Assembly: GCA_964495905.1 (NCBI GenBank)
Contig: CAZBWN010000078.1
Location: forward strand, 1,566-65,565
Direction of reading: 5' to 3'
DNA length: 64,000 nucleotides
Source: an uncultured Candidatus Peribacteria bacterium
GTDB lineage: Bacteria > Patescibacteriota > Gracilibacteria > Absconditabacterales > Absconditicoccaceae
In this document: positions 8,034 to 64,000 of the stretch, in pieces
Layout of the letters: every line of letters begins with the position of its first letter
How positions within the stretch are numbered: position 1 is the stretch's first letter
Made by a program: the position numbers and the translations under genes
Notes under the pieces: generated by a model
Databases searched by the model: none
Seen by the model: the letters and a program-made list of their open reading frames with translations, nothing else
Told to the model about the DNA's origin: nothing

Positions 8034-8137
8034 TAATTTGGGTGGCAGGTAGCAGGTAAAAGGTAGCAGGTTGTCTTTATGTCCTATATAATAGTAATTT
8101 GATTTGAAAAAAAAAGCCGGAAATGTATATTCATGCT

Positions 8138-14277: not shown

Positions 14278-14305
14278 TTGACTTTTGTTTGTAAATAGCT
14301 ATATG
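14278..14305 (+). promoter_or_regulatory. putative promoter (copy 2 of the duplicated cassette)
   Basis: TTGACT-N16-TATATG, same layout as 13486..13513. Confidence 0.45.
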
Positions 14306-14350
14306 TATGTCTCAAAAAACAAAAAAACCAATCTAAAAAAAATTAAAACT

Positions 14351-14995
14351 ATGAAAAAACTATTATGTATTTTATTGCTTGTGAACTCTTGGAGTCTCAC
14401 ATTCGCTACCACGCAAAGAAAGGTTGTTGTCCATGGGGAATTTCCTATAGAAAAACTTTCTTTATTGTCTTCAATTCAACATGATACCGTTATTTTTGAC
14501 AGAACTGAAGTCGGTTCTCTTGAAAAATGGGAATCGGGATTTTTCTTCGCTCACCAATACAAAGCGTCTTATCTGCAGGATTATAATTATCGGGTTGAAT
14601 GTAAAAAAAATCTGATAACTGTATATGAAAGCACTTCTTCTGAGCCACGGAATGTAGGTCCTTATTTTTTGACTCCACTACTATCTCCTTGGTTTCTGGT
14701 CAGTGTACCTTTAATTCTGCATTTGATTCTGTTTTTGTACTTGCGAGGTCGTCTGTTTCGTATCTATCGAGATGATAGATCTGTTACATTACGACAACAA
14801 CGTAAAGAAAAAATGACAGTTGTACTGATAATTACATTGCTTGCTCTACTTTTGGGTTTCTTTTGTAGGTCTCAGTTCTTTATCCTTTTTTCATTGGTGT
14901 ATCTGGGATTTATGTTCCAAACTGCTAAATCGTATTCCCGTTCGGGGAAGATCGATGGTGATCTCTTTATCGGACATAGATGGCTCGGAGTATAA
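14351..14995 (+). CDS. hypothetical membrane protein with signal peptide (tandem paralog 2)
   Basis: ATG at 14351 inside track ORF 14285..14995: MKKLLCILLLVNSWSLTF...GEFPIEKLSLL..DTVIFD, matching paralog 1 (GDYPIEKLDFF..DTLIFD). Confidence 0.65.
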   Translation: MKKLLCILLLVNSWSLTFATTQRKVVVHGEFPIEKLSLLSSIQHDTVIFDRTEVGSLEKWESGFFFAHQYKASYLQDYNYRVECKKNLITVYESTSSEPRNVGPYFLTPLLSPWFLVSVPLILHLILFLYLRGRLFRIYRDDRSVTLRQQRKEKMTVVLIITLLALLLGFFCRSQFFILFSLVYLGFMFQTAKSYSRSGKIDGDLFIGHRWLGV

Positions 14996-15311: not shown

Positions 15312-15719
15312 ATGGACTTGAATAAGGTAATGATTATCTGAAGAGCTACTAACAATTTGCAGGTAAAGACTATCGAAAGCAGTTGAACTTCTGTAGTTAA
15401 TTTCACTGTTGCAACCAACAGAAAATTTAAGAACAAAGAAGGAAATGTACTTGAAGATGCAGAATACCACAGATGTGTAGCCTATGGAAAAGGAGCTGAA
15501 GTTTTGGCAAAGTATTTGAATAAAGGAAAAAGAATCTATATCGAAGGAAGGCTGAGAACAAGAAAACGACAAGACAGCGAATGAAAAGATAAATTCTCTA
15601 CTGAGATCATTGTTGATAATTTTATCTTCTTGGATCCAAAAGGACAAGGAGGTGATGATAATCATGTAGCAGAAATTGCTGAACCTGTAGTTGCAGATGA
15701 TGAAGATGTACCATTCTAA
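15312..15719 (+). CDS. ssb: single-stranded DNA-binding protein
   Basis: MDLNKVMII-G-RATNN..., GRLRTRK(CGA)QDSE-G-KDKFSTEIIV, acidic tail DDEDVPF. 408 nt. The 138-aa minus ORF in the track is antisense. Confidence 0.92.
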
Positions 15720-19977: not shown

Positions 19978-20727
19978 TTATACTACTTGATTTTTTTTGA
20001 CCATCATATCTCGAATTTCTGTTGAACGATCCCAATCTTCTGCTTCATTTGATATTTCAAGCTCTTTTTGGAGTTCTTCTACCGACATGTCTTCAAGTTT
20101 TCTGTTTTTTAGTTTATCCAGGATGAACTTTAAGATGTTTTCATCTGCAAGAAAGTTTACTATTGTTCCCCCTTCGCTTTCTTCTTCATTTAATTCTGAG
20201 AAATCTTGTTCGTATGTCTTGAGTACCTCAAAACTCATTTCTTCTAATTTTGCTTTGATATATTTTCTTAATGCTTTTCTATCCTCAAGACAATCTTTTT
20301 CCTCAGGTGAAGTACCTAAGCTTTGATTTATCCTTACTAAAGATTCAAATAATTCATTCAAATCCATTCTTGGATAGAGTTGTTTTCGATAATCGGATTG
20401 TTTGTAAACTTCAATTTTTACAGGGTAGGGACCTATGATATCTTCATTTTCTTTGATAGCTTTCTCTTTTTTTTGATCTATCTTTTCATGATAGAAATAA
20501 AAAGCTATGTTGAAGTCTATCTCAAAGTCGTCTTTCCCTGCCCCAATTCTTTTGATAGGGATGATGTGTGATTTTTCTGTGTTTTTAGTTGCTGAGATAC
20601 TCCCATTACTATCTATAAATAGATTGTTATCTATAAGAGTCACAGCTCCTGCAGATAGGTATCCCTCTTGTCCAACTTCCATTTGAAACATCAGGGTGTT
20701 TACCATAATAATTCCGTTGATTTTCAT
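19978..20727 (-). CDS. hypothetical acidic protein with C-terminal UVR-like motif
   Basis: Intact 249-aa track ORF, no TGA codons. C-terminus ...VEELQKELEISNEAEDWDRSTEI(CGA)DMM resembles the UVR (UvrB/UvrC) helical motif. Confidence 0.6.
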   Translation of the reverse strand: MKINGIIMVNTLMFQMEVGQEGYLSAGAVTLIDNNLFIDSNGSISATKNTEKSHIIPIKRIGAGKDDFEIDFNIAFYFYHEKIDQKKEKAIKENEDIIGPYPVKIEVYKQSDYRKQLYPRMDLNELFESLVRINQSLGTSPEEKDCLEDRKALRKYIKAKLEEMSFEVLKTYEQDFSELNEEESEGGTIVNFLADENILKFILDKLKNRKLEDMSVEELQKELEISNEAEDWDRSTEIRDMMVKKNQVV

Positions 20728-39200: not shown

Positions 39201-39230
39201 ATCTGTCCGCCTAGGCGGACAGATTTTTTT
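39201..39230. terminator. bidirectional terminator (pyk / trxA convergent) built on the CCGCCTAGGCGG palindrome
   Basis: ATCTGTCCGCCTAGGCGGACAGAT plus T7, with an A/T-rich run on the other side. Confidence 0.75.
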
Positions 39231-39245
39231 ATATGCAATTAAATT

Positions 39246-39575
39246 TTATGCTTTTGCTGAGTATTGTGCGATTCTTTCTTGGTAGACGGTTGCAGGATTT
39301 GCTCCTATAATCTTATCTACTACTTTTCCGTCTTTTATAAAGAAAACCACAGGGATGGAAGTCACTTGAAACGTTCAAGCTAGTTCTTGATTCTCATCTA
39401 CATTCACTTTTGCTATCACTACATCTTTGTTCTTTTCTGCTAATTGTTCGATGATAGGTCCAAGCATCTTACAAGGTCCGCATCGTTCTGCTCGAAAATC
39501 GACAACTGCTAATTTTCAGCTTTCTAAAATCTCTTTTTTGAATTGTTCTGTTCCTACAATGTGGAGTACTGACAT
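39246..39575 (-). CDS. trxA: thioredoxin
   Basis: ...LAVVDF(CGA)AE(CGA)[11 protein letters not shown]...VNVDEN..LA..F.V.SIPVV.F.KDGK. Both tryptophans of the canonical WAEWCGPC motif are written as CGA. 330 nt. Confidence 0.9.
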
Positions 39576-39853: not shown

Positions 39854-40804
<951 letters not shown>

Positions 40805-41060: not shown

Positions 41061-41444
41061 ATGAAAAATGAAAATCCAAAAAATATCTTGGTAGTCGATG
41101 ATTGTCCAAATGATCAAAAATTAGTTACTTTGCTTTTACAAAGAAGTTTTGACTGTATCATCCATATTGTGGATTCACTTACTGCAGCAAAAACAAAACT
41201 TCAATCTGAAGAATTTGATATCATCACTTTGGATGGTATGCTTCCCTGTCTTATTAATGGAGGCTTTGGATATACTCTTATTCCTTTCATCAAAAATTTT
41301 CAGAGTTCGGAGTGTAAGATCATCATGATCTCTGGAGAACGTACACATGTTGAAAGAGGTATGAAATTAGGTGCCGATTATGGTTTGAATAAGTATGATC
41401 TTAAAAAAGAAAGCAAGTTCAATCAAAATTTTGAACTTGTGTAA
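41061..41444 (+). CDS. orphan response-regulator receiver (CheY-like) domain protein
   Basis: NILVVDDCPNDQ..., FDIITLDGMLP, KIIMISG. 127 aa with no output domain. No TGA. Confidence 0.75.
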   Translation: MKNENPKNILVVDDCPNDQKLVTLLLQRSFDCIIHIVDSLTAAKTKLQSEEFDIITLDGMLPCLINGGFGYTLIPFIKNFQSSECKIIMISGERTHVERGMKLGADYGLNKYDLKKESKFNQNFELV

Positions 41445-44897: not shown

Positions 44898-44970
44898 TGC
44901 TCTCGTAGTTCAGTTGGATAGAACGACTCTCTCCTAAGGAGTAAACACAGGTTCGACTCCTGTCGGGGGT
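44898..44970 (+). tRNA. tRNA-Arg (anticodon CCT)
   Basis: GCTCTCGTAGTTCAGTTGGATAGAACGACTCTCTCCTAAGGAGTAAACACAGGTTCGACTCCTGTCGGGGGTA. Loop CU-CCU-AA. Acceptor stem has several G-U pairs. Confidence 0.8.
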
Positions 44971-45153
44971 AGTAAACAATTATCAATTCAAAATTACGAA
45001 TTACGAATAAAAAAATAAAATATTACTATCTTTAAATTCGTAATTAATAATTCGTAATTTGTAATTGTCTTTCAAGGCATTGTCAAATACGGTTTTATTA
45101 CTGTTGACTTTGTTTTGCATCATCTTTTTATTTTTTTAATATCCTTTTCACTT

Positions 45154-45527: not shown

Positions 45528-46934
45528 ATGGCTACTGTAAGTATAATAGAACAATTACGTTCTGGAAAAATAGTCATGCCTATCATCAAGGAATGACACA
45601 AAGTAAAAGGAATCGTACTTAAAAAAATCGAAAATGGTATTTTAGTAGATTGTGATAATTACGCATTTACTGGAGTTATCTTATCAAAGGAAGTTAAAGA
45701 ACTTGAAAGATCTGGATATGAATTAGATCCAGGAAGAGAAATCGAACTTGAAATCGTAAATACTAATATCAGGCATGAAGATGGACATTATATCGTATCT
45801 ATCACCAAATTACTTCAATACGATATCTGGAAATCCATCATGAAGAAATTTGAAGCTGATGATGTGATCACTGTGATCCCTACTGAAGCAAATCTTGGAG
45901 GTCTACTTGTAGATATGCATGGAATCAAAGGATTCGTTCCATTGTCTCAATTGGCTCCTATCCATTATCCAAGAGTAGAAGATGGTGATCAAGAAATCAT
46001 TTTTGAAAAACTATTGGATTTGATCGGAAAAGAACTCAAAGTAAGAATCATCAATATCGATGAAGATGAAAAGAGAATCGTGTTATCAGAAAGAGAAGCA
46101 CTCAAGGAAGAGAGAGAAAATATCCTCAAAGATCTTGAAGTCGGAAAAATATACGATGGAGTTGTGAGCGGACTTTCTTCATATGGATTATTCGTGACTA
46201 TCGGATGAACTGTTGAAGGTTTGGTACATATCTCAGAAATTACCTATGGACACGTTAACAATATCGAGAAGCTTGGAAAAATAGGTGACAAAATCAGTGT
46301 AAAAGTCATTGGATTAGAAAATGGTAAGATATCACTTTCTAGTAAAAAATTGAAGGATGATCCACGGACAGCGTTACCAAAAGAATACAAAATCGGTGAT
46401 TACATCGAAGGAGAAGTCATCAGATTCGTTCCTTATGGAGTATTCGTGAGAGTGTTTCAAGATATCAATGGATTGGTGCATTTGAGTGAACTTTCACAAA
46501 AATCTATCCAAAACCCAAATGAAGTCGTTAAGCTCGGACAGATCATCAAGACAAAAATCATCTTGCTTGATCCAAAAAATAGAAAGATTTGATTGAGTAT
46601 GAAGGGTGTAGATGATGATAAAGCTGCTTTAGAAAAAAAGGTTGCTGCTCCATCAACTCCTACAGCTCCAAAAGCTGTAGCTTCTAAGACAGAGACTCCT
46701 GCACAAGCAGTTCTCCAAGAAGAACTTATCCCTGCACAAGCTCCAAAGAAATTTGAAGGTAAAGGATTGGCTGGAATAGTCAAAAAACTTTCTGAAGAAA
46801 AGCTTGAAGATAAAGCAAAAAGAATCACTGATAAGCTTGAAAAAAATCCTGACAAAAAGGATAAGGTAGTAGAGAAAGACAAAAAACCTGCTGCTAAAAA
46901 AGTTGTTACAGAAAAGAAAGTAGCTAAAAAGTAA
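45528..46934 (+). CDS. rpsA: 30S ribosomal protein S1-like protein (four S1 domains plus Lys/Ala/Pro-rich tail)
   Basis: Track ORFs 45840.., 46221.. and 46593.. are in one frame, joined by TGA. Repeated GxVxxxxxxGxFVxxxxxxxGLVHxSE modules. KKLKDDP(CGG) corresponds to the conserved DPW. Confidence 0.85.
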
Positions 46935-46954
46935 TCATATACTAAACTATAAAG

Positions 46955-47008
46955 ATACCGTATGTCCCTCCGCCACGGCGGACAAGTGTGACTGCGGTAT
47001 TTTTTTTG
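46955..47008 (+). terminator. compound hairpin terminator
   Basis: Outer stem ATACCG/CGGTAT enclosing TCCGCC-acg-GCGGA, followed by T8. Confidence 0.6.
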
Positions 47009-47093
47009 TTTCATTATAATTCATTGATTTTCTGTATTATATTCTTAAAATGTCAACTAAACAAACAAAAAAATAACTAAAAAAAATAAAAAT

Positions 47094-48038
47094 ATGAAAA
47101 AACAAATGGAAAAAATAATCGATCCTGTTGAAGTAAAATTACTTGAACAAGAACTTAATACAGATACCTTTTTACGCCCTGTAAATAGAGGTGCTAATGA
47201 GTTGTATATTATTCATAAAGAAGATTGTCCTCATGTGATGCAGGAAATTGGTCGTCTTCGTGAAATCACTTTTCGTGGTGCAGGTGGAGGAACAGGTAAA
47301 TCATCGGATATCGATGAATATGATGATTATTTTCATCAGTTGGTACTATGGAATCCGGATCGTAAGGAAATTGTCGGCGGGTATCGATTTGCTTGCATGT
47401 CTAAACTTGTTGATAACAATACAATCAACAGTCCTACTCATGAAATCTTTCAATTCTCCGATACTTTTATCAAGGATTATCTTCCTCGTACTATTGAACT
47501 CGGACGTTCTTTTGTACAGCCAGAGTATCAACCGATCAGAAATCCTAAAGCAGGATTATTCTCTCTAGATAATCTGTGGGATGGACTTGGTGCTTTGGTA
47601 GTTGATTATCCTAACATCACTCATTTTTTCGGTAAGGTCACTATGTATCCTAGTTTCAATTCTCAGGCTCGCAACTATATTCTTTTTTTCTTACAAAAGT
47701 ATTGTCCGGATACTGAACATTTGATGTTGCCTGTCTATCCTATACAGGGGTTGGATAAAGAAATCGATCTTCTCGCAAAATTTCTTGATTATGGAAGTTA
47801 TGATGATGATTTGAAGCATCTTATGGATGCTGTTGCTGCTCTGGGAACAACTATTCCTCCTTTGGTGAAACAGTATATGAATCTTTCTCCGACATTAAAA
47901 ACATTTGGAACTTCTATTAGTCCTTCGTTTGGAGATGTTGAGGAAACTGGTATGTTGATTACGATTGCTGATATTCATTCTAGAAAAAAAGATCAGCACG
48001 TTGAAACGTACCGAAAATATAAATTACATAAAAAATAA
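47094..48038 (+). CDS. GNAT-family N-acyltransferase (hemolysin-like/OlsB-like Acetyltransf_5 type, tentative)
   Basis: Intact 314-aa track ORF: LRPVNRGANELYI, LREITFRGAGGGTGKS.DIDEYD, VGGYRF, ELGRSFV.PEYQ. 0 of about 20 Gly codons are TGA (hand count). Confidence 0.65.
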   Translation: MKKQMEKIIDPVEVKLLEQELNTDTFLRPVNRGANELYIIHKEDCPHVMQEIGRLREITFRGAGGGTGKSSDIDEYDDYFHQLVLWNPDRKEIVGGYRFACMSKLVDNNTINSPTHEIFQFSDTFIKDYLPRTIELGRSFVQPEYQPIRNPKAGLFSLDNLWDGLGALVVDYPNITHFFGKVTMYPSFNSQARNYILFFLQKYCPDTEHLMLPVYPIQGLDKEIDLLAKFLDYGSYDDDLKHLMDAVAALGTTIPPLVKQYMNLSPTLKTFGTSISPSFGDVEETGMLITIADIHSRKKDQHVETYRKYKLHKK

Positions 48039-50897: not shown

Positions 50898-51362
50898 TTA
50901 ATTAAGAAGCCAGATATGATAGGCGAACCAACTTGCTATAGCTACCCGAATAGGGTAGAGGATAAGCAATAATGATGCTCGTTTGGATCTTGGATAGAGT
51001 AGTACTATCTTTATGACTGTGAGTATCAACAATACTATCATCACTATAAATGAAAAGAGCAATCGATGCTGTACAAAAAAGAATCGATTCCAAAATGCAT
51101 TGAGAAGTCCATTGATGATAAACAATCGAAGGATTAGTGTGAAATTTTTATCATGTTTCGTTTTCCAAAAAAACAGTAATGATGCTATACAACATGCATA
51201 AATAATAGTCCAAACCATTCCTATCAATGCTCCTGGAGGCGTCCCTTGAGGGAGGATAAGTGTTCCATACCATCACATCCCTGCGTTGGTGAACATACTG
51301 CCTAGGGTACCTACTGCGATTACTAACAATGGAATGATGATGTAGCTAAGTCTGTTCTTCAT
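50898..51362 (-). CDS. TspO/MBR (tryptophan-rich sensory protein) family membrane protein
   Basis: MKNRLSYIIIPLLV...NAGM-G-WYGTLILPQGTPPG...VWTIIY. Extends track ORF 50898..51227 upstream. Several CGA/CGG codons fall where TspO homologs have Trp. Confidence 0.8.
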
Positions 51363-51373
51363 AGATATATCTA

Positions 51374-52351
51374 TTATAGGCTAAAACCTACTTTTTTATA
51401 TATATCCTCTATTTTTTTCTTTGCCATTTCATTTACTTTCTGTGTGTTTTTGTTGACGAGATCTATGATCTCTTGATCGGATATTTCCGCATATTTTTTC
51501 TGGATAGGGAGTACAAAGGCAAGTAACTTTTCGTAGAGATAGTCTTTTGCATCTTTATAACTCAATCCTCATGCCAGATATCTTTTTCTTAATGTTTCAT
51601 TTTCTTCTGGTGTCAAAAATAATTTACAGATATTATATACGTTACATTCATCCGGATTTTTTGGTTCCTCGATAGTCAAGGCGCTTGTCGGGATCTGTTT
51701 AACCCTTTTGAGGATAGTCTTTTCGTCGTCGAGAAGTCAGATGAAATTATTATATGATTTACTCATTTTACGTCCATCTATTCCCATAATCAATCCTACT
51801 TCCTCCTTGATATACGGTTCAGGGATCTTAAATGTCTCTCCAAATGCGTTGTTGAACTTCATAGCTATATCTCTCGCGTATTCCACATGCTGTTTCTGGT
51901 CTTTTCCTACGGGGACAAGGTCAGTGTCGTATAATAGGATATCAGCCGCCATCAAGATAGGATAACAGAATACTCAGACATTGATCTCTTTGGCTTTCCC
52001 TTTATCCAAAGCATCTTTGTACGTATGCATCCTCTCCATAAATCACATATTTGTGATACAGGTAAGTATCCAATTGAGCTGTGCATGTCCTGGAATCTCT
52101 GCAGGATTGTAGATCAAAAATCTTTCTAGATCCACTCCGCATGCTGCATACAACTTGATGATATTGATACCATTTCTTCTTAGTCTTATAGGGTCTTGCA
52201 CGCTATTGAATGAATGCATGACTGCCAAAAACATGAAAATCTCTGCATCTTTGAATTTGTCTGCAAGGTCTAGCATCGGTTTTACCGCTCAGAAATAATT
52301 TCCGATATGGATTTGGTCACTTGTTGCTTGAAGTCAGGTTAGAATCCTCAT
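51374..52351 (-). CDS. trpS: tryptophan--tRNA ligase
   Basis: [22 protein letters not shown] (HIGH), [13 protein letters not shown] (KMSKS). Three track fragments in frame. 978 nt. Confidence 0.92.
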
Positions 52352-52457
52352 GTATTGGTGTGTAGAAGTTAAAGTATTTATCATTGATATCATAGCGTTT
52401 GGGTGAATTATTTCAATAGATAGAGAAAAACTGTGTCTTTAGTGTAATATCATAAAC

Positions 52458-52645: not shown

Positions 52646-53317
52646 TTAGATTCTTGATCATATCGGTAATTCTTTTTTTTCTAATGAGATATCAATCATA
52701 TAAGCTGATTTTTCTCATTGTACAGTACAGATGTTATTATCATAAATAAGTCCTGTTCCTTCTGGTAGACAGATGACGGGAATTTGATAGTATTTTGCAT
52801 AATCTTTTATTTCATTTTCAGATTCTTCGTTATAATGACAAACTATAGAATAATCTTTACAAACATTATATCATAATGTTTCTTCAAAAGATAATTTTAC
52901 TGCATTCATATCTGCTGCTGTATGAATTTCCTTTCCCATGATAATCGCTCCTGCGCTTCATCCGTATATAGGTTTATTATTGTCGATAAATCTTTGAATG
53001 ATGTCTGAAAATCATGTATCTCTGATTAATTTCAAGAGTCTGTAGGTATTTCCTCATCCTATATACATACCATCATAATCATCCAGATGATTTTTATTAT
53101 TTTCTGTAAATTCTTTTTCTGATAATACATCTACTGAATATCATTCACTTATAGGAAATATATTTTGTATCCATTCTAAACATGAAGGATATTCTTCTGG
53201 ACGCATTGCTCGGGGGATATAGAGTATTTTTTTGTTTACTAATAATCATTTATAGAGGGCATCTATTTTTTTGGTGTCAGTGTGGTCTCCTCATCATGAT
53301 ACTACTAGTTTTGTCAT
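52646..53317 (-). CDS. peptidase S51 (dipeptidase E-like) family protein
   Basis: MTKLVVS-GGG-D..., YI-GGG-NTYRLL, IY-GG-SAGAII. 672 nt. Confidence 0.75.
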
Positions 53318-53503
53318 GGGTATAGTATAGCGGATAAATGTTTCTTTTTTAGAATAATGAATATGTCTAATATTTCAATAATAGATTGTTTTATAAAAAA
53401 ATATGTTTACTTGATATATGACTATTATATCTGATTTGTTTAAAATTTTTGCTATTGTGTTCTAATCTTATAAATATATATTTTTTAGGCTATATTTTAT
53501 TAA

Positions 53504-53578
53504 GCCAGGGTAGCTCAGTGGTAGAGCAGAGGCCTGAAAAGCCTTGTGTCGACAGTTCAATTCTGTCTCCTGGCACCA
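53504..53578 (+). tRNA. tRNA-Phe (anticodon GAA), CCA encoded
   Basis: GCCAGGGTAGCTCAGTGGTAGAGCAGAGGCCTGAAAAGCCTTGTGTCGACAGTTCAATTCTGTCTCCTGGCACCA. Confidence 0.92.
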
Positions 53579-53670
53579 TCTTATTAAAATAAATTTATTT
53601 ATTTGACTTTTATTATTAAATATGTATACTTTTGATTGATAAAAATTTATTTTTTTAAATGCTATTACAT

Positions 53671-55023
53671 ATGAATAAAGAGAATTTTACTTCTTCAGAA
53701 TGATATAATATGAAAGATGCTATTTCATTGGGTTCGGATGATCAGGCCACTCAAAAAATTTCTGATATTTTATCTGATAGTTCTAAACTTATAAATATTA
53801 ATTGAAATGATAATAAATGGATTGAATATATAAAACAGAAAATGAATGATAAATCTCTTTCTCCAAGAGAAATTTCATATTATAATCGTATCTTGAGGGT
53901 ATTATCAATGCCTGATTTATCTAAACAACCATGACATCCTATAAATTTAGTCATTAATAAAATTCTTTCTGCTCATTTTTTTGAATGATTTGATCATATA
54001 GACGTACCTCAATTTGTTTCTGAATGGGAAACTTTTGATTTATTTAATTTTCCTGAAAATCATGTAGCTAGAAGACCGAGCGATAGTTATTTTGTCAATA
54101 AATCTGAAATCAAAAAAGAAAGCATTCTTCTTAGACCACATACTTCAGTAATGTGGTACCACTATTTGATAGAATGAAAAGCAAAAGAAATCTTGGAAAA
54201 AACTTGAGAAGTAAAAGCATTATCTTTTTGAAAAGTGTATCGTGTAGATGAGCTAGATAAAACTCATCATGAATGTTTTCATCAAATTGATGGATTAAGA
54301 ATAACATCAAAAGAGAAAGAAATCATTAATCAAGATACATTGAAAGAGGTATTATCAAATACGATCAAAGCACTTTTCTGAGAAAATGTAAAGTTTAGAT
54401 TTAACCAAGATCAATTTCCTTATACAACAGATAGTTTGGAGGTTGAGGTTGAATTTGAATGAAAATGGTTGGAGGTTTTATGAGCATGAGTAGTACATCC
54501 TACTGTTTTAGAAAAATTATGATTAGATTCTACCAAATATAATTGATGGGCTTTTGGTTTTGGTATAGATAGATTAGTAATGGCATTGAAAAAAGTACCA
54601 GATATAAGAATTCTTCGGAGTGAAGATAAGAGAATCACTTCTCAATGGTGAAATCTTAATCCATATAAGGAAGTAAGTAATTTTCCTCCTGTTTATAAGG
54701 ATATATCTTTTGTTACTTCTAAGGATAAATTTGTAAAAAATACAGTAGAAATGGAAAAATCATGAAAGATTGAATTGATAAATGAAGCTGATTCATTTGA
54801 TTTGGCTGGTATAGCAAGAGATGTTTCATGATGACTTATAGAAGAAGTTAGGGTAATAGATATTTTTGAAAATGATAAAAAATTTGGTAATGATAAAAAA
54901 TCTGTGTGTGTGAGAATTACCTTTAGATCCTTAGAAAGAACGCTTACTAATGAGGAAATAAATATAGCTTATTTCAAAATAAGAGAAAAATTAGAAAAAG
55001 AACTTAATTATGAATTAAGATAA
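53671..55023 (+). CDS. monomeric, mitochondrial-type phenylalanine--tRNA ligase (class II core fused to FDX-ACB anticodon-binding domain)
   Basis: No ORF in the standard-code track. With TGA=G, a continuous 450 aa: HPINLV, FPENHVARRPSDSYF, LLRPHTSV, F-G-KVYRVDELDKTHHECFHQIDGL, -G-A-G-VVHPTVL, -G-WAFGFGIDRLVM, PDIRIL(CGG)SED. C-terminus FPPVYKDISFV...CVRITFRSLERTLTNEEI = FDX-ACB fold. Confidence 0.85.
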
Positions 55024-55033
55024 TTTAATTCCC

Positions 55034-55062
55034 TTGACATTAATCTCTATTTTAATATAAAT
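55034..55062 (+). promoter_or_regulatory. sigma70-like promoter of the peptide/radical-SAM operon
   Basis: TTGACA (55034..55039), 16-17 nt spacer, TATAAA/ATAAAT (55056..55062), about 50 nt upstream of ATG 55111. Confidence 0.55.
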
Positions 55063-55110
55063 ACTTTGATAGATTAAATCTTTTGTATGTTTTATATTAT
55101 AATATATAAT

Positions 55111-55227
55111 ATGGAAAACAAAGAAATTCAAGTTAAAAATGTTTGTGAAGAAAAGGATGCTAAAGAAAACGTGGTAGAAGATTATTATGAAGCAGAATCT
55201 TGGCAGTTTAGTGGTTGTTGAGATTAA
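55111..55227 (+). CDS. 38-aa candidate precursor peptide (RiPP-like): MENKEIQVKNVCEEKDAKENVVEDYYEAESWQFSGC-G-D
   Basis: Small ORF directly after the promoter and directly upstream of the enzyme genes. Acidic leader-like N-terminus, C-terminal SWQFSGCGD. The penultimate codon is TGA (Gly in code 25), with true stop TAA at 55225..55227. Confidence 0.6.
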
Positions 55228-55231
55228 TAGA

Positions 55232-55260
55232 AATGGGAGGAAAACTCCCATTTTTATTTA
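55232..55260 (+). terminator. hairpin plus T-run after the peptide gene (partial terminator/attenuator)
   Basis: AATGGGAG-gaaaa-CTCCCATT followed by TTTATTT, 14 nt before the next gene. Confidence 0.55.
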
Positions 55261-55273
55261 TTTAAAAATATAA

Positions 55274-55906
55274 ATGATTACATTATCATTTTGAGTAAAT
55301 TTATTATGAATAGAATATTTTAGGTCAAAATTTAATAAGACTTTTGATCTTGATGTATGTTCTGCTGACGCAAAGATAGCATGTAATGAACTCATTTTTT
55401 TATGGGATAGTGTTTCATCTGATATAAATTTTATTATAGAACAATTCTTTTGAGAGATTCATTATGATTTGAAAGTTGAAGTTTATCCAAAATATTTTCT
55501 TTTGTGAGCCATAAATATTGAAAAATGACTTATTGTCCTATGACAACCCAAAAGATCTGATTTTTTTTATTGATGATTGTTGTTACATGAATTAATTCAT
55601 TTTGTCTTGAAAGATAGATGATTAAATAGATTTATTGAGGAAACTATTTGTTTTCTATTTGAAAGAATGTTTATATTGAAATATGATTGAGCAACTATTG
55701 ATGATTTTCAATATGATAAATGAACTGATGATTTTCATACATATGCAATTATGTATTCAAAAGTTTTTTTTGATGATTTTATGCTATTTTATGCGAAATC
55801 TGATATTAATTGATTAATAAATTTTTTGAATAAAAAAATCGATAACTCTAAAAAGGAAATCACTATCGAAAATAATTTAATAGCTTATCTATCAAAAAAT
55901 GCATAA
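55274..55906 (+). CDS. HExxH-motif protein (putative zinc metallopeptidase)
   Basis: 633 nt open with TGA=G. ...DFFY-GG-LLLHELIHFVLKDR-G-LNRFIEE.... No further family recognised. Confidence 0.55.
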
Positions 55907-57206
55907 ATTCTATTTTAAGAAAGATACGTTGATTAGGATAGAACATTTTTGAATTCTATTATTGACTTTGGATTGAAGAAGATTTTCTATTTGAAATGAG
56001 TTTAAACCTATTCTAACTCATATCCATTGATGAAATATTGATTTATTATTAAAGTTTGGTAAAAAAATCTGAGAAACTAAAATTGTAAGGCTTATTGAAG
56101 CATTGGTAGAAAAATGAATATTGATATATTCATTAAAAAAGATTAATTCAAAATTAAGAATTATTGAAAATGATTTTATTTCAAATGATTGTTTAAGTTT
56201 TCCAAGAACTGTTTATTGGGAATTGACACAATCCTGTAATCTTGAATGTATCCATTGTTATTCAAACTCTATGGTAAAATGATTCAAATGATTAGATTTT
56301 GATACAATTAAAAAGACTATTGATGAATTGATAGATAAATGAGTTGAATTCTTAAATATTTGATGATGAGAACCATTGATGTATAAGGATCTCTATAAGA
56401 CATTGGATTATGCAATATCAGGATGACTTGTGATTGAGATGACAACAAATTGAACTTTAATAGGGGAAGAATCGATAAAAAAATTAAAACAAGTCTGAAT
56501 GAAATTCATTCAGATAAGTCTTGATTGATCATGTAAAGAAATTTATGAAAAAATCAGAAAAAAGTCAGATTTTGACAAAGTGATTAATTCAATAAAGTTA
56601 TTGATTGCTTCTTGATTTGTTGTTTCTATCAATACTGTATTGATGAAACATAATAAGGATGATATCATAAATATAATTAAATTATGCAATAGTTTATGAG
56701 TTAGTTATTTCAAGGTTTCTCCATTGATGGAGACATGAAGATGATTTACAAATATGGATAATATCCAATTGAGTTTGATTGAATATAAGAAAATATATAA
56801 AACGTTACTTAAATATAAAAAAGATCATTGATCTGATGCCATCAAAATCATAATATATCAAAATATATTAAAACCTGATGTCAAAAATATAAATTGGATG
56901 CCAAAAGAACATTTTTGATGCCCCGCATGAAGGACTACATGTTGAATAGATCCTTATTGAAATGTATATCCTTGTTCATATATGAATCAAAAAGAATTGT
57001 CTTGTGGTAATATTAAAGAGCAATCATTGTCTGATATATGGTCAAAATCAGAAATAATGGCTAATATCAGAAATATTGATAAAATCTCATGAAAGTGTTC
57101 ACATTGTAAATTCTTGGACTTGTGTAGATGATGATGTAGAGCAATGGCATATTTAAGATATAAAAAAATAGATGCAACTGATCCTTTATGTGTTGTAAAT
57201 TTATAA
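55899..57206 (+). CDS. radical SAM/SPASM enzyme with N-terminal PqqD/RRE-like domain (rSAM-1)
   Basis: ATG overlaps the previous stop (ATGCATAA). TQSCNLECIHCY (CxxxCxxC), NI-GGG-EPLMY, SPASM -G-CPA-G-RTTC-G-IDPY-G-NVYPC ... CGNI ... CSHCKFLDLCR-GG-CRA ... DPLC. By hand count, 29 of 33 Gly codons are TGA. 1308 nt. Confidence 0.85.
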
Positions 57207-57210
57207 AAAT

Positions 57211-58227
57211 ATGAAAATATCTATAGCTACTAATTGGGATGATGATCTAGTTGATTATATATCAAAATCAAACAATGATTGTTTATCAAATAGCATATGT
57301 GAATTTTTTGCGTCAAAAGCGTTTAGTATCTTATGAAGTGCTAATACTGATGTTCCAGATCTATCGCTTCAAGATATAAAGCAAAAAATATCCTATATAA
57401 AAGATAAAAATATCCAATTTAATTACTTGATTAATTCAAGTAAAATGCCTGATTTAAATGATGAGATAATCAGAAAAAAAGTCTTAGATTATTTGTCATG
57501 GATCAATACATTAGGTATTGATATTCTAACAGTGGCTAGTGAGGATCTTTTAGATCTAATCTATAAGAATTTTCCCAATATCCCCATTAATATTTCTGTC
57601 GTATTATGACTAAAAACTATAGAGAAAGCTAATTATTTAAGAGAAAAATATCCAAATATCGTAAGACTAACTTTACATCAAGATATCAATAGGGATAAAA
57701 AATTATTGGAAGAGCATATTAAAAATGCACATAATCATCAGACACTAAAGCCAGTTGAGATAGAATTATTGGCAAATGAGGTATGCTTTATTGGGTGTTG
57801 ATTAATGAAAGATCATTATGATGCATTAACTTCCTTGTCTCAAAAAAAAACATGAAAAGATTTTATGTTTTGATGGTGCTGCGCCAAAAGAAAAGAAAAT
57901 ATTATTGATTTTATCAATTCTAGTTTTATTAGGCCTGAAGATATGATATTATATGAAGATTTATGAGTTGATATCATTAAATTAGCTTGAAGAAAGGAAC
58001 AAACCAATGAATTGAAACTTAGGGCAAAGGCATATTTAGAAGGTTATTATGATTGAAATATTATGGACTTATTTTTAGCAGAATTTTGGCCTATGAAAAA
58101 ACCTCCATATATTTCTAATTCTTCTTTTAACTGATTTGTAAAGTTTTTATGGGGACAAAAATTAATAAAAATTGATAATAAAGAAATATTTCCATGATTC
58201 AAAAATTTAGATTATAATCGGAATTAA
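57211..58227 (+). CDS. hypothetical protein, peptidase-U32-like (tentative)
   Basis: 1017 nt open with TGA=G, containing track fragment 57427..57609. MKISIATNWDDDLVDYI..., IELLANEVCFIGC-G-LMKDHY resembles the U32 Cys-containing motif. Weak, by eye. Confidence 0.4.
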
Positions 58228-58229
58228 TT

Positions 58230-60176
58230 ATGTATTATAAAATTAAAGACAATGTTTTGTGGAGAAATGAGAAAAATAGTTTTATGATACTCCATCCAGT
58301 ATCAAAAAAATTGATGATATTCTGAAAAGATATCTCAGATTTTGTTAGTAAATGATGAATAATTGATGGATTTAAATTAAAAGATAATGTATCTATTAAA
58401 TATTTGATTAAAGAATCAATTGTTGCTGATTATCTGATTGATTTTGATATAAATAATCACATATTTTGATCTGATAATTTTGTTTCGGCTCCTTTAAATG
58501 TGACGATACAGATAACCAACAGGTGTAATCTACAATGCGGACATTGTCATAAGGTTGATAAGTGATGTGTGAATATTGATAAAGATAGACTCATAACCTT
58601 GATTGATGAACTTCATGAAATGAAAGTGTTTAATATAAATATATCATGATGAGAACCATTGATGTATGAGTGATTATCTGATGTTATAAAATATATAGTA
58701 TCCAAATGAATGAAAATTACTATGTCGACAAATCTCGTACTCTGGGATGAAAATATGGCAAATACAATGCATCAATTATGAGTAAGACAATTACATGTTT
58801 CATTAGATTCAAGTGATGAAACATACCATGATCATATGAGATGACATAAAGGCGCTTATTTGACTACTATTAAAAATCTGGCAATCATAAAAAAAGCTGG
58901 TTTAACTTTTACTTTGGTCACTACTTTGGTTAATCAAAGCATTGATGATTATTCAAAGATCATAGATTTATCATATAAATTATGAGCTAGTTGACATAAA
59001 ACTAATATATTAGTCCCACAATGACAATGAAAGTCTATAGAAACTTGATATTATAAAGATTTAAATTTATTTAAATCATATATTCGTGTTTTTCTTCAAA
59101 AAAAGAAAAAATATGATAAAAAAATGTCTGTGATATGAGAAAGCATGTTCATGATAAGTATCTGAGAAAATATGGATAACAAACCCGATATTTTGAAGTT
59201 ATGGTGTCCAGCAGGAGTGTTGACCTGTGCAATAACTGAAAAATGAAATTTGTTGGCATGCCCCTTTTATACCGAGCTTAGTATGTGAAATATATATGAT
59301 GATTCATTTAAAGATTTATGGACAAAAAGCGTATTGCTTTGAAAAATAAGAGTGTGTAAAGAAAATGATGGTAGTTGATGTCAAGCAAGAGCATATTGAA
59401 TATCCAAATCAATTGAAAATAATGATCCATATATTCATAAAAATGTATATGATGCAAACAATCATGATTTCTATAATAATTCAGCAGAAAATAGAAATGA
59501 TTTTATATCGGTAGTCTGACATTGAATAAAGATTGAATGAGAAAAATGAAATAAAGAGTTCTATTGATTGATACATAATTATTTGATGAGTTCAGACCTA
59601 ACATTGGAGATTTGAACCTGAACTTGAATCGTACCGAAGACTTTGGGTTGTCTGTGAAAAAAGATAATTTCCATCGATTTTTCAGATAATATGTTGAAAT
59701 TGGCAAAAGAAAATTGTAGTATGTATGATAACGTCTTATTTATGAAAGAAGATATACATGCATTGACTTTTAGGGATGGTAATTTTGATCTTATCATTAA
59801 AAGGCTTGCTCCGGATGATCTATGAGAAATATTCAGAGTTTTGAAATTCGGTTGAAATTTCATTAATTTTACAAATTGAGAAAGAGATTGAATGGAATTA
59901 AAAGAACTTTTTTGATTTCCTTTCCATCAAAGCGTTTCTGATTATAAATCTCAATTGGTTAAACAATGATTTGAGATGATATATGAAGATGAATTTGAAT
60001 TTAAGGAAATCTATAATGATTTTGATATACTAATTAAAATGTTACATATAGCGCCTATCATACCTGACTTTTTGGATAGAGAGGCATATTATATTGATAA
60101 AATAAAAACTGAATTTGATGACACTAATTGCTTTGTTTTAACTCGTCATAAATATTTGGTAAATGCAAAAAAATAA
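58230..60176 (+). CDS. radical SAM/SPASM-like enzyme with RRE-like N-terminus, fused to a C-terminal class I SAM-dependent methyltransferase (rSAM-2/MT)
   Basis: TNRCNLQCGHCH, IS-GG-EPLMY, CPAGVLTCAITEK-G-NLLACP. Then LTLEI-G-T-G-T-G-IVPKTL (motif I), ISIDFSDNML, GNFDLII, LKF-GG-NFI. Frame continuity between the halves was checked codon by codon across 59331..59642. Same frame as track ORF 59976..60176. 1947 nt. Confidence 0.8.
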
Positions 60177-61200
60177 ACCATTTGATATATTTACATTGCA
60201 ATGGCATATTACAAATAATTGCCAATTAAGATGCACACATTGTTATGTAGATTTTTCAAAATCTTTTTCAATCAGTATGTCTGATTTTCATAAAGCTATG
60301 AATAATTATAAAAGATTCCTTGCATATTATTGAATAACGTGAAAGGTATATTATACTTGATGAGATCCACTTCTTCACCCAAATTTTTGGAATATTATGG
60401 ATGAAACAAAAAAACATTGATTAGAATCGGCTATATTTTGAAATTTCCATTTGTTGAATGATGAAAATATTCAAAAATTATGTGACAATGATATCAAATT
60501 TTATCAATTGAGTATGGAATGACTTAGAGAGACACACGATAACATAAGATGAGAATGAACATTTATCTGAGTAATTGATTCTATTGCTAAATTAGAACAG
60601 AAATGAATATATACTCTAGTTAATATGACATTATCAAAAATGAATATCGATCAGCTTATACCTTTAATTGAATTTTTAGCATATCATACCAATCTTTCAA
60701 GATTTGATTTTGTAAGAATAGTTCCTATTTGAAAAGCATCAAAAAACATTATGCTTTCTGATGCTGAATTGAAATCTATCTTTTTAAAGATATTGGAATT
60801 GGAGAAAAAAATAAAAAAAGATTGAAAAAAAATGGTTATATGAAAAAAAGATCATTTATGGAAATTATTATATTACCAATCAGATAAACTGAATATTAAT
60901 TTGAAAGACCAAACAGCTGGTTGCTGAATGGGATATAGGCACCTTACAGTAATTGAAAATTGAGATATCTATCTCTGTAGGAAACTACCAATTAAAATAT
61001 GAAATATCATTACCGATGATTTAATAGAAATATATGAAAATAATACAATTATTTCAGATGTATTGAATCTAAATTATGTCGTGTGATGCCACTGATGTAA
61101 ATTGGAATATGTGTGTAGATGATGTCCAGCTGTAACCTATTGATTAAATAATAATTTAACAAAAAAAGATCCTCAATGTCGGCAGAATTATTTATATTAA
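60163..61200 (+). CDS. radical SAM/SPASM enzyme (rSAM-3)
   Basis: ATG overlaps the previous gene by 14 nt. TNNCQLRCTHCY, YT-GG-DPLLH, SPASM A-G-C-G-MGYRHLTVIEN-G-DIYLC ... -G-NI ... -G-CH-G-CKLEYVCR-G-CPA ... DPQC. 1038 nt. Confidence 0.85.
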
Positions 61201-61212
61201 TAATGCATAAAT

Positions 61213-62259
61213 ATGTATATGGCAAATATCGTTATATGAGAAACCTATTGTGTCCTTAATTGTGATTATTGTATGTATACAAAAGATATTAGAAAGATTT
61301 TTTCAGAAAAAGAATTATCTACAGTTTCTGGAAATGTATCAAAAATAAAGAAATTTATAGATAATTATGCAAAGAAAATACAGGTCATATCTCTTACATG
61401 ATGAGAACCTACATTGTTCCCTGATATAATAAAGACTTTTTATGATAAATTTGATAATAAGATAATTAGAGTTTGTACCAATGGACTTTTATTAAATAAT
61501 GAATTATTAGATTCATTTTCTCCTGAAAGATTATATTTTGCCGTAACTTTGGATTGAATTGATTTAGAGGATAATTTATTCAGATTTAAATCTCAAGTTA
61601 TGTTGGATAAAATAATCTCTAACATAGATCTTTTGTTGAATAGATGATTCAGTGTTGAAATATTGACGGTTCTGAGTCCTCAAAATATGTTAAAATATAC
61701 TAAATTGATTGAATATTTTGAAAATAAATATCACAAATATATTGAAAACTGAAAAATATGGTTTATACCTATCGAACTAGTGAATTATATGAATTTAGAT
61801 AAATTTAAGATCAGTGATAAAATGAAATCTGATCTTGTGCTTGATCTCATGTCCTGTAAGAAAAAATCAATTATACTGTCAAGACAGAAAGAATATTTTG
61901 ATGAACTAATATCGTATTATTCATGAAATAGCGTCAATACTTGTGGTATGTATAAACGAGCGCTCCATTTAAAATATTTGGGGGATTCTATTCGAACAAA
62001 ATGATCATTTAATCTTTATTGATGCTGAAGCAGATGACATCTGATGATGTGAACAATGAATTTTAATAATTCATTTGATGCTTCTTTTATATTAGAAAGA
62101 AGAGAAACAAAATCAGTAAAATTATATTTTAAAGAATCGGATAGTGCATGTAAAAAATGTTTTGATAATCGACATTATTATTGATTAATATTAAAAAATA
62201 AATTACATAATGTCCCACATATATTAAAAAAAACAATTGATTTATATCATAATAATTAA
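61213..62259 (+). CDS. radical SAM enzyme with Cys-containing C-terminal domain (rSAM-4)
   Basis: YCVLNCDYCMY (CxxxCxxC at residues 12-19), SLT-GG-EPTLF, C-terminal NTCGMYK, Y-G-C-G-SR-G-, CKKC. 1047 nt. Confidence 0.75.
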
Positions 62260-62261
62260 AA

Positions 62262-63041
62262 ATGGAAGAAAAATTCTTGTTGAATAAAATTTGATCAAAC
62301 CCTAATAGACTTTGAGTCTTAATATGTACTCATGGAGATGAAACATTATGATTTAATGTTATGAAGATGATAGAAAATGTTGTAGATGATCTTACTTTTG
62401 TCTTGATGAATAAAAGGGCTTTTGATATATGAAAAAGATATGTTGAATATGATTTGAATAGGTGTTTCTTGTGAAATATATTGGAAAAATGACTTGATTC
62501 TTATGAATACAAATTATCACAAGAACTTCATGAAATACTAACTTGATTTGATAATATCATTGATATACATTCGACAAATTTTGATATAGATCCATATTTT
62601 ATTATAGATACACTCGAAAAAAAGGAATCAATATTGATTAAATCCGCATCTAATGAATTAATCAAAAATTCCTATCTAATACCTCTTTCAAAATGAACCG
62701 TAATCTGACCTTATTTGAATGCGATAGCAATAGAGTCTTGACCTAATAATGATAAGAAGAAAATACATCAAGTTGCAAACATAGTCAAAAATATATCAAA
62801 TAATATTTGATTTAATCATAACAATGAAAAGGAATTGAATGTTTTTTGATGAGAGTTGACAAAGAAAGATGTCTTTAGATTAAGAGAAGATATTAAAGAT
62901 TTTGATCTAATAGCTAAATGAGCAATTTTATGATATAATGAGGAATGAAAAATTGTGATAGCTAATGAAGATATGAAATTGTTTTGGATAAATAATAAAT
63001 TTGAAGATCCGAATGTTCTTGCAATAAAATTAAAAATTTAA
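62262..63041 (+). CDS. succinylglutamate desuccinylase/aspartoacylase (AstE/AspA, M14-like zinc carboxypeptidase) family protein
   Basis: VLICTHGDETL-G-, EYDLNRCFL-G-, IIDIHSTN. 780 nt with TGA=G. Confidence 0.65.
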
Positions 63042-63668: not shown

Positions 63669-63679
63669 AATGCATCCGT

Positions 63680-63735
63680 GCCGGGGTGATAAATTGAAGA
63701 ATAGACATGTCCGCCTAGGCGGATGCCATAAACAG
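63680..63735 (+). pseudogene. tRNA-Leu-derived 5' fragment whose anticodon arm is replaced by the GTCCGCCTAGGCGGAT palindrome
   Basis: GCCGGGGTGAT (identical to the first 11 nt of the tRNA-Leu at 63768), D-arm-like ...AATAGACAT, palindrome, then GCCATAAACAG. No T-arm or 3' acceptor. Confidence 0.6.
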
Positions 63736-63767
63736 TTAGTGAAAAAATTTAATAAAATTGTGTTCAT

Positions 63768-63848
63768 GCCGGGGTGATGGAATGGTAGACATGCTTGGCT
63801 TAGAACCAAGTGCCATACGGTGTGCAGGTTCGAGTCCTGTCCCCGGTA
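63768..63848 (+). tRNA. tRNA-Leu (anticodon TAG)
   Basis: GCCGGGGTGATGGAATGGTAGACATGCTTGGCTTAGAACCAAGTGCCATACGGTGTGCAGGTTCGAGTCCTGTCCCCGGTA. Long variable arm. Confidence 0.88.
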
Positions 63849-63928
63849 GTTGATTGTAGATTGAATGATAGACATGTCCGCCTAGGCGGATGCCACACGG
63901 TGTTCAGAATAACTCCCTGTCCCCGGTA
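63849..63928 (+). pseudogene. tRNA-Leu-derived 3' fragment with the same palindrome in place of the anticodon arm and a degenerate T-arm
   Basis: ...GATTGAATGATAGACAT-GTCCGCCTAGGCGGAT-GCCACACGGTGTT-CAGAATAACTCCCTG-TCCCCGGTA. Variable arm and 3' acceptor match the tRNA-Leu at 63768. The 5' acceptor is missing. Confidence 0.6.
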
Positions 63929-64000
63929 AATACATTCTTTGTACTAAAGTATCATTTTATGTTGAAAATGATATCTAGATTCTTATAGGTTAGTACATTG

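Follow-up and report, generated by a model that had tools for sequence, protein, structure and literature searches.

We analysed a 64,000-nt window (the whole stretch of DNA under study, positions 1,566 to 65,565 of contig CAZBWN010000078.1) for the meaning of the codons CGA and CGG, which encode arginine (Arg) in the standard code. Alignment of the window proteins to solved structures and to related genomes supports CGA and CGG acting as tryptophan (Trp) codons in the great majority of the window genes, on top of TGA acting as a glycine (Gly) codon, while a small class of TGA-free genes places CGA and CGG at Arg positions. One gene of the window, which itself contains no CGA or CGG codon, served as the anchor for finding relatives and encodes the enzyme expected to charge the tRNAs with UCG or CCG anticodons discussed below:

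51374-52393, minus strand: tryptophanyl-tRNA synthetase (TrpRS) gene

Source of the window and the meaning of TGA

The window TrpRS is 82-87% identical to that of metagenome-assembled genomes titled Absconditabacterales or SR1 in a local tblastn search, and 56-58% identical to that of Candidatus Vampirococcus lugosii. In addition, the product of the gene at 47094-48038 is EKD25586.1, deposited as 'uncultured bacterium (gcode 4)' on contig ACD_80C00012 of the Rifle-aquifer SR1 genome ACD80; the window is DNA of this SR1/Absconditabacterales genome. Relatives were collected by scanning one genome per species with the window TrpRS, which yielded 80 loci, grouped by TrpRS identity into 21 close (≥68%), 9 mid-distance (50-68%, including Ca. 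Vampirococcus lugosii) and 50 distant loci, the last mostly standard-code. All window proteins were aligned to these loci and the codon opposite each window codon was recorded.

With TAA and TAG as the sole stops, the window has 64 open reading frames (ORFs), which take up 88% of its length and include 464 TGA codons in frame. As this coding density is reached only with TGA as a sense codon, TGA is read through, and it is read as Gly: window TGA stands opposite GGN in 225 of 326 pairs from the distant loci and exchanges freely with GGA and GGT in close relatives. The ORFs contain 118 TGG, 90 CGA, 29 CGG, 68 CGT, 14 CGC, 338 AGA and 78 AGG codons, so that Trp makes up 0.62% of residues from TGG alone and 1.25% when CGA and CGG are added, and AGA accounts for 68% of the four remaining Arg codons (AGA, AGG, CGT and CGC). 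The GC content is 0.33, ranging from 0.27 to 0.36 along the window.

CGA and CGG at conserved Trp positions

To place CGA and CGG in protein families, X was set at each such position and the proteins were aligned to solved structures in the PDB. The following genes carry the positions that bear on their meaning:

39246-39575, minus strand: thioredoxin gene, 109 codons, CGA at codons 28 (39492-39494) and 31 (39483-39485) in VVDF-x-AE-x-CGPC, two in-frame TGA
15312-15719, plus strand: SSB gene, CGA 15567-15569 in RTRK-x-QD
39854-40801, minus strand: thioredoxin reductase (TrxB) gene, CGA 40415-40417 in a motif starting ESKY
45528-46934, plus strand: ribosomal protein S1 gene, CGG 46365-46367 in KDDP-z
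53659-55023, plus strand: mitochondrial-type PheRS gene, CGG 54616-54618, inside a low-GC island
4453-4956, plus strand: nucleoside diphosphate kinase (NDK) gene, CGA 4897-4899
8099-8704, plus strand: PEBP-family gene, CGA 8420-8422, a weak case
50898-51362, minus strand: TspO gene, four CGA and one CGG, conserved Trp only at CGG 50946-50948

Both thioredoxin CGA codons fall on Trp in five of five solved structures, where they correspond to the two Trp of WAEWCGPC, and four distant loci carry TGG at both sites. The CGA codons of SSB and TrxB likewise align with Trp in five of five solved structures each. At the CGG of S1, relatives have TGG (5), CGG (4) or CGA (2) and the distant loci TGG in three of three, and a further relative (L161) reads DDPW with TGG. 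The CGG of PheRS aligns with the Trp of the human mitochondrial enzyme (DIRLFW-CED), a single species. CGA thus occupies Trp-conserved columns of standard-code homologues, with TGA-free genes as the exceptions, and CGG does so in S1, PheRS and TspO.

The initial annotation had proposed the Trp reading from thioredoxin, SSB, S1, PEBP, NDK, PheRS and TspO, and had not listed the TrxB site. All seven codon positions that it quoted are present in the frame it gave: CGA twice in thioredoxin and once each in SSB, PEBP and NDK, and CGG in S1 and PheRS. Its thioredoxin, SSB, S1 and PheRS examples are strong, resting on Trp in structures or, for S1, on TGG in relatives. The NDK example is compatible with Trp, which occupies the site in two of five solved NDKs, but phenylalanine does so in the other three. 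For PEBP the codon is in place and the Trp alignment is weak and gap-dependent: HMMER sets X against Arg (3n08) or against Gly beside a gap, and Trp is reached only in the ungapped register with E. coli YbcL/YbhB. Of the 'several positions' claimed in TspO, one of five sites is Trp in both structures, but the other four are variable.

Codon exchange among relatives

An unselected comparison is given by the codons that stand opposite the window codons in close relatives:

Window CGA: CGA 54, TGG 11, CGG 8, CGT 3, AGA 2, CGC 2
Window CGG: TGG 18, CGA 14, CGG 10, Arg codons 0
Window TGG: TGG 70, CGG 20, CGA 13
Window AGA: AGA 370, AGG 44, AAA 30

At the distant loci, TGG is the partner of CGA in 8 of 10 pairs, of CGG in 3 of 3 and of TGG itself in 52 of 53, such that CGA/CGG pair with TGG in 11 of 13 cases versus 1 of 592 for Arg codons, although these pairs are not independent. 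Counted by site over the 30 close and mid-distance loci, TGG occurs in some relative at 10 of 18 CGA/CGG sites versus none of 109 AGA/AGG/CGT/CGC sites (Fisher p = 2e-10), and conversely CGA or CGG occurs in some relative at 12 of 20 window TGG sites versus 5 of 109 Arg sites. The same held at the level of families across the related loci (window genes where present): in TrpRS, RluD, S1 and six more TGA-containing families, the partners of CGA/CGG are TGG or CGA/CGG, and every TGA-containing family with enough CGA/CGG pairs has TGG partners, two small families being mixed. On this exchange pattern, CGA, CGG and TGG form one synonymous set in native genes, apart from AGA, AGG, CGT and CGC. Their correspondence with Trp is confirmed far beyond chance. 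The hydropathy and charge of residues flanking CGA/CGG, TGG and Arg codons gave no discrimination, even TGG versus Arg being non-significant.

These statistics decide against the plainest alternative, that CGA and CGG mean Arg throughout and that the Trp coincidences arise by chance or from favourable examples. The examples of the initial annotation were indeed favourable picks, and the PEBP site, the four variable TspO sites and three MurC sites, where the aligned residues are P, G/N and L/F/Y and never Trp or Arg, are uninformative and lend the Trp reading no help. The site counts above, for which nothing was selected, refute the alternative, and we give it practically no chance. The claim of the initial annotation that CGA/CGG act as Trp codons besides UGA as Gly therefore holds for the bulk of the genes, by structures as well as by codon exchange.

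The published code and candidate decoding tRNAs

Shulgina and Eddy (2021, eLife 10:e71402, PMC8629427) reported that in Absconditabacteria CGA and CGG encode Trp, besides UGA as Gly. They described low GC and AGA-dominated Arg usage in this clade, tRNAs classed as Trp-type by G73 and the lack of A20, and a tRNA-Arg(GCG) for CGU/CGC with no tRNA-Arg(ACG). Because the reassignment found here is the same, the recoding is already known and is not a new code. The window agrees with the published description in its placement in Absconditabacterales/SR1, the in-frame UGA read as Gly, the three codons concerned, its GC content (published range 0.26-0.38) and its AGA-dominated Arg usage, and some more distant relatives carry the same type of tRNA. 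The initial annotation had attributed the code to this clade, correctly as judged by the TrpRS placement and the published description. Taking these observations together, we consider that this lineage very probably uses TGA for Gly and has reassigned both CGA and CGG from Arg to Trp.

How far the reassigned codons are used may differ. Usage in the window looks more advanced, at 48 CGA, 15 CGG and 62 TGG per 10,000 codons over all ORFs, than the published values of fewer than 37 CGA in all species and fewer than 7 CGG in all but one (PMC8629427), which were taken from Pfam-aligned columns and are not strictly comparable with those of the window. NCBI translation table 25 (SR1/Gracilibacteria) has UGA as Gly in common with the window but keeps CGA/CGG as Arg, and a 2026 study of Absconditicoccaceae still used table 25, with CGA unmentioned. 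In Anaerococcus and RFN20 Bacilli, also of low GC, an Arg codon has likewise gone over to a Trp-type tRNA whose anticodon is a single mutation from CCA; there, however, the captured codon is CGG only and tRNA(UCG) is absent according to PMC8629427, whereas the window has CGA too, as the commoner of the two.

We propose that a dedicated tRNA(UCG), and in some lineages a tRNA(CCG), would have lost the Arg determinant A20 and carry the Trp-type features A1:U72 and G73, because of which TrpRS would be predicted to charge it. CGU and CGC would remain Arg through tRNA-Arg(GCG), and AGA and AGG through tRNA-Arg(UCU/CCU). In native genes TGG, CGG and CGA now replace one another as synonyms, and a minority of genes of foreign, standard-code origin keep CGA/CGG at Arg positions.

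Nine tRNAs were found in the window by ARAGORN, and an Rfam scan found those nine only. The sole tRNA of the Arg box among them, identified by ARAGORN, Rfam and its sequence, reads AGG:

44899-44971, plus strand: tRNA-Arg(CCU), with the Arg-type bases A20 and A73

Neither program found a tRNA with a CCA anticodon in the window. In more distant relatives, Trp-type tRNAs of the proposed kind are present. Locus L024, whose TrpRS is 57-59% identical to that of the window, has a tRNA(UCG) with A1:U72, G73 and U20, and a Trp-type tRNA with a UCG/CCG anticodon also occurs at L140, the TrpRS of the two loci being 57-62% identical to that of the window. A metagenome scan for an architecture of Trp-type acceptor end, T-loop and YCG anticodon gave 75 matches, of which about 70 are tRNAs by ARAGORN, 45 with UCG (L024 counted) and 25 with CCG, and 61 of the 75 lie in low-GC contigs whose long ORFs need TGA as sense.

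The CCG tRNAs have the anticodon loop CUCCGAA. At L119 (964-1172), a tRNA-Trp(CCA) with the loop CUCCAAA and a Trp-type tRNA(CCG) form a tandem pair, the loops differing by A36G, which fits an origin of tRNA(CCG) by duplication. In the UCG tRNAs the loop is CUUCGGA, with C35, G36 and G37, and the D-arm is unlike that of the CCG tRNAs. The different bodies and the different base 37 (G versus A) suggest two separate origins of the UCG and CCG families. A tRNA-Arg(GCG) lies beside a Trp-type tRNA(UCG) at L150 (6141-6359), and another example occurs at L031.

In plant mitochondria, CGG at conserved Trp positions once appeared to mean Trp and was later explained by C-to-U RNA editing. Editing of this kind, turning CGG into UGG in the RNA, would also permit different behaviour between genes or between sites in the window. 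However, most of the codons concerned are CGA (90 versus 29 CGG), and an edited CGA becomes UGA, which is Gly here, so that editing cannot make a Trp codon from it; moreover, SR1 lineages possess the dedicated Trp-type tRNAs with UCG and CCG anticodons just described. To our knowledge, no bacterial RNA-editing system of the CGG-to-UGG kind exists, and we consider editing extremely unlikely.

TGA-free genes with CGA at Arg positions

Several observations weigh against CGA and CGG meaning Trp, and nothing else, everywhere in this genome. Some concern the tRNAs: no CGN-reading tRNA, with a UCG, CCG, GCG or ACG anticodon, was found in the window by ARAGORN or Rfam, and no recoding tRNA lies within 10 kb of TrpRS in those close relatives whose contigs reach that far. 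As no Trp-type tRNA thus comes from the window or its closest relatives, the tRNA evidence is drawn from lineages whose TrpRS is about 57-62% identical to that of the window and from metagenome contigs that are unplaced. The correspondence of codon and residue and the exchange pattern belong to the window and its relatives themselves; the Trp-type tRNAs belong to more distant relatives. The remaining observations concern genes without TGA:

47094-48038, plus strand: PF13444 N-acyltransferase ('hemolysin') gene beside rpsA, CGA 47385-47387 (codon 98, GGY-R-F) and a second CGA 48012-48014
8742-9362, minus strand: AAA_28 (NadR/Ttd14-like) ATPase gene, 0 TGA among 12 Gly codons, CGA 8904-8906 (N-x-x-R-x-E), 9042-9044 and 8829-8831
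13561-14208 and 14285-14995, plus strand: two paralogous TGA-free membrane-protein genes, six CGA/CGG, several in a basic stretch
19978-20727: TGA-free ORF for an acidic protein
41061-41444: TGA-free ORF for a CheY-like receiver

None of the 20 Gly codons of the acyltransferase gene is TGA (P = 1e-4), and diverse homologues, 142 of 142, have Arg in the column of its CGA at codon 98. In relatives this codon stands opposite AGA, CGT, CGC, CGA and CGG, with no other residue in the column, which makes it one site of the 18 compared above with a behaviour opposite to that of Trp. Orthologues in 14 relatives contain no in-frame TGA in 4270 aligned codons, whereas the other two frames contain 105 and 239; over the family, TGA makes up 1 of 304 Gly codons, the single case being part of a spurious 5' extension. 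The partners of CGA/CGG in this family are Arg codons (125), Lys codons (74) and each other (66), and never TGG. At conserved Trp columns (29 codons), TGG occurs 17 times and CGA/CGG not once, and at conserved Gly columns GGN occurs 171 times and TGA not once. The acyltransferase gene thus looks as if it were written in the standard code, and the family appears to evolve in the 14 relatives as though CGA and CGG were Arg.

Neither are CGA and CGG depleted where Arg matters most. Judging column conservation from 117 mostly Bacteroidota homologues, with an invariant Arg column defined as ≥90% Arg, we counted 15 CGA/CGG versus 72 other Arg codons at invariant columns and 16 versus 83 at variable ones (p = 0.85). 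The gene is under purifying selection, with a ratio of nonsynonymous to synonymous substitution rates (dN/dS) of 0.10-0.14 and saturated synonymous divergence (dS), like the neighbouring rluD. Under a pure, unambiguous Trp reading, CGA/CGG at invariant Arg positions would be expected to be purged, and they are not. A search of the PDB for a solved acyltransferase homologue in which to place Arg98 gave no match.

This lack of purging could be accounted for by ambiguous decoding, in which CGA/CGG would be read as both Trp and Arg, either because tRNA(UCG) is also charged by ArgRS or because an Arg-type tRNA competes with it; adaptation to Trp would have taken place in native genes, and the portion read as Arg would be enough to sustain foreign ones. 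Besides the undepleted Arg columns under strong selection, and CGA at invariant Arg in two TGA-free genes, the UCG tRNAs fit this account and make it plausible as a mechanism, as their C35, G36 and G37 form an Arg-like anticodon loop and C35/G36 are Arg anticodon determinants. Shulgina and Eddy (PMC8629427) held that ambiguity of translation is decidable by experiment only and left Trp insertion in vivo open. However, the pattern follows genes and not sites: exchange with Arg or Lys almost never occurs in TGA-containing families, and exchange with TGG never occurs in the acyltransferase. Ambiguity also predicts that CGA/CGG are avoided at critical Trp and Arg positions alike, yet both active-site Trp of thioredoxin are CGA. 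In addition, codon context (the -1 and +4 bases and the next codon) shows no difference between Trp-type and Arg-type CGA/CGG. On balance we regard ambiguous decoding as rather doubtful.

The acyltransferase gene looks foreign in its usage and in its kinship. CGT accounts for 39% of its Arg codons, versus 9% in native genes and 1% in S1, and its nearest homologues outside SR1, at 53-57% identity, are from Bacteroidota, which points to an old transfer of the gene. Each SR1 copy has other SR1 copies as its best matches. Recent independent transfers were considered and rejected on this ground, together with the shared locus and a conserved promoter described below. Distances between acyltransferases were also compared with those of S1, RluD and TrpRS as a test of vertical descent, but only the pair L015/L022 is closest in two genes (acyltransferase and RluD), and the correlation is uninformative because the radiation is star-like. 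The contig that carries the nearest homologue of the AAA_28 gene (42% identity) has long genes free of TGA and hence belongs to a standard-code organism; CGA 8904-8906 of the AAA_28 gene falls on an Arg conserved in five of five homologues.

Such origins invite the reading that standard-code imports are simply mistranslated: they would receive Trp at CGA/CGG, with products impaired or tolerated, and TGA would be shunned as a poor codon in well-expressed genes. The foreign kinship of both genes agrees with this, and highly expressed native genes also cut TGA, to 17% of Gly codons in S1, 2 of 42 in FtsZ and 0 of 19 in DnaN. Under the new code, moreover, the synonymous path from CGY to AGR through CGA/CGG is broken, which can freeze a CGT-rich usage of the kind seen in the acyltransferase. 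TGA avoidance in well-expressed genes and the lost CGY-AGR path can account for some of the frozen usage, but not for CGA/CGG at Arg. For the AAA_28 gene no reading is simpler than mistranslation, but it is a poor fit for the acyltransferase, whose state was kept through a radiation of at least 14 species under purifying selection and saturated dS, with SR1 copies as best matches, and whose frame is free of TGA while the other frames are not. Tolerance of Trp would also predict other residues in the codon 98 column, which holds only Arg codons or CGA/CGG. We consider mistranslation quite possible for these genes, short of an even chance.

The window has other TGA-free genes as well. The membrane-protein pair and the acidic protein hold eight CGA/CGG together, the codon for Arg28 of the CheY-like receiver is CGA in two relatives, and the TGA-free ORFs contain 14 of the 112 CGA/CGG codons of the window. 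At the relatives' loci, every nearly TGA-free family has Arg-type CGA/CGG. On unrelated SR1-like metagenome contigs, the sole nearly TGA-free family, a PlsC-like acyltransferase with 1 TGA among 86 Gly codons, has mainly Lys and Arg partners; CGA/CGG are of the Trp type in the larger families with TGA and mixed in a few small ones. One meaning per codon in all genes is therefore not what is found. The initial annotation had stated that clear Arg positions use AGA, AGG, CGT or CGC, which fails at codon 98 of the acyltransferase and at CGA 8904-8906 of the AAA_28 gene; its implication that the recoding applies uniformly, changing every protein prediction, does not survive the share of CGA/CGG in TGA-free ORFs and the two testable genes with CGA at invariant Arg.

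The acyltransferase gene has its own upstream signal. After the terminator hairpin of S1 lies a promoter-like motif, TTGATTTT-N14-TAAAATGTCAAYT, followed by an A-rich leader (window 46935-47093). The motif is strongly conserved in 12 relatives with a readable upstream region, all copies standing after rpsA, and it precedes all three sequence types of the acyltransferase gene, whose proteins are down to 25-30% identical. At L018 and L029, the slot after the motif holds an unrelated, likewise TGA-free gene.

The TGA-free genes might be translated by a standard-code tRNA set, either that of another cell, the host of this epibiotic predator, or that of the SR1 cell in a life stage with another tRNA pool. 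This would fit the evolutionary signal best, as TGA is missing from all conserved Gly positions of the family, CGA/CGG equal other Arg codons, Trp is TGG only and the usage is foreign, and the conserved promoter of the acyltransferase would suit it. A precedent for code-neutral elements is found in TGA-avoiding phages associated with SR1/Gracilibacteria and predicted to infect both code-25 bacteria of the Candidate Phyla Radiation and standard-code bacteria, whose coding sequences have no in-frame TGA and would encode identical products in both codes (Liu et al. 2023, mBio, PMC10746230). What that paper describes is phage genomes, predicted from CRISPR spacers, whereas the genes in the window are chromosomal and one is vertically inherited across many species; the CGA/CGG question is not raised in the abstract of that study. 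Against translation by another tRNA set, the TGA-free genes sit among ordinary SR1 genes, no sign of a second tRNA set was seen and the case is one of evolutionary inference alone. Moreover, we know of no mechanism by which one bacterium could express genes scattered over the chromosome of another. We consider this account very unlikely.

A broader view would be that one SR1 genome holds two sets of genes under different codon meanings, a native recoded set and a few foreign genes kept in the standard code, under purifying selection, through the radiation of the clade, the acyltransferase being the best example. In the latter, CGA/CGG might still be functionally Arg, through a tRNA of dual identity, a second tRNA or condition-dependent decoding, or the genes might be served by a standard-code translation system. 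Judged from the sequences, we advance this view only tentatively.

The low-GC island and neighbouring elements

Beside the TrpRS gene lies a segment of different composition:

52646-63041: low-GC inserted island, genes with GC of 0.23-0.30 versus about 0.34 elsewhere, absent at the locus in close relatives

The island contains PepE, a tRNA-Phe, the mitochondrial-type PheRS and a cluster of radical-SAM/SPASM-like genes. TGA makes up 80% of its Gly codons overall and 53-100% in individual genes, with counts such as 12 of 12, 29 of 33 and 38 of 47, and CGA/CGG are rare, 6 versus 25 TGG. In six close relatives TrpRS directly adjoins the tRNA cluster Gln-Met-Gln-Leu, which identifies the island, together with TspO and a Nudix gene (50.4-51.4 kb), as an insertion, the probable donor of the island being a different UGA-recoded lineage whose codon usage is not the same.

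Two degenerate tRNA-Leu copies (63670-63730 and 63850-63930) flank tRNA-Leu(UAG) at 63767-63849, with the anticodon arm replaced by the palindrome TCCGCCTAGGCGGA. The same palindrome also forms a terminator-like hairpin after the thioredoxin gene (39203-39226). The degenerate copies could represent a mobile palindromic element or what is left of an integration event at the tRNA gene. Close relatives have tRNA-like genes downstream of rpsT, within their tRNA cluster (L002 8856-8931, L013 8777-8848 and L009, the last cut by an assembly gap). Their D and T arms are normal, the acceptor stems pair poorly and the anticodon arm is abnormal, having either a stem of 6 bp and a CUAAG loop of 3-5 nt or a loop of 8 nt, GCUUCAGC; ARAGORN called one of them 'tRNA-???' and another 'tRNA-Leu(taa)' of 72 nt.

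Implications

The public record ACD_80C00012 (EKD25586.1) is annotated with translation table 4, in which TGA is Trp; its proteins therefore read all 464 TGA as Trp and all CGA/CGG as Arg. Tables 4 and 25 both misread about half of the Trp codons here (119 CGA/CGG versus 118 TGG). The recoding itself has been known since 2021; the TGA-free, standard-code-like class is the unexpected part and is unexplained by that recoding, and a term search of the text of PMC8629427 returned no mention of TGA-free genes with CGA/CGG on Arg.

The two gene classes supply ready target peptides for a proteomic test. The TGA-free class bears on the question left by the 2021 paper, whether the reassigned codons are decoded unambiguously or not, and on the barrier that an altered code sets against gene import. 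Genes acquired from outside that have long kept CGA/CGG at essential Arg positions would be either a visible cost of such a code barrier or evidence that the barrier leaks.

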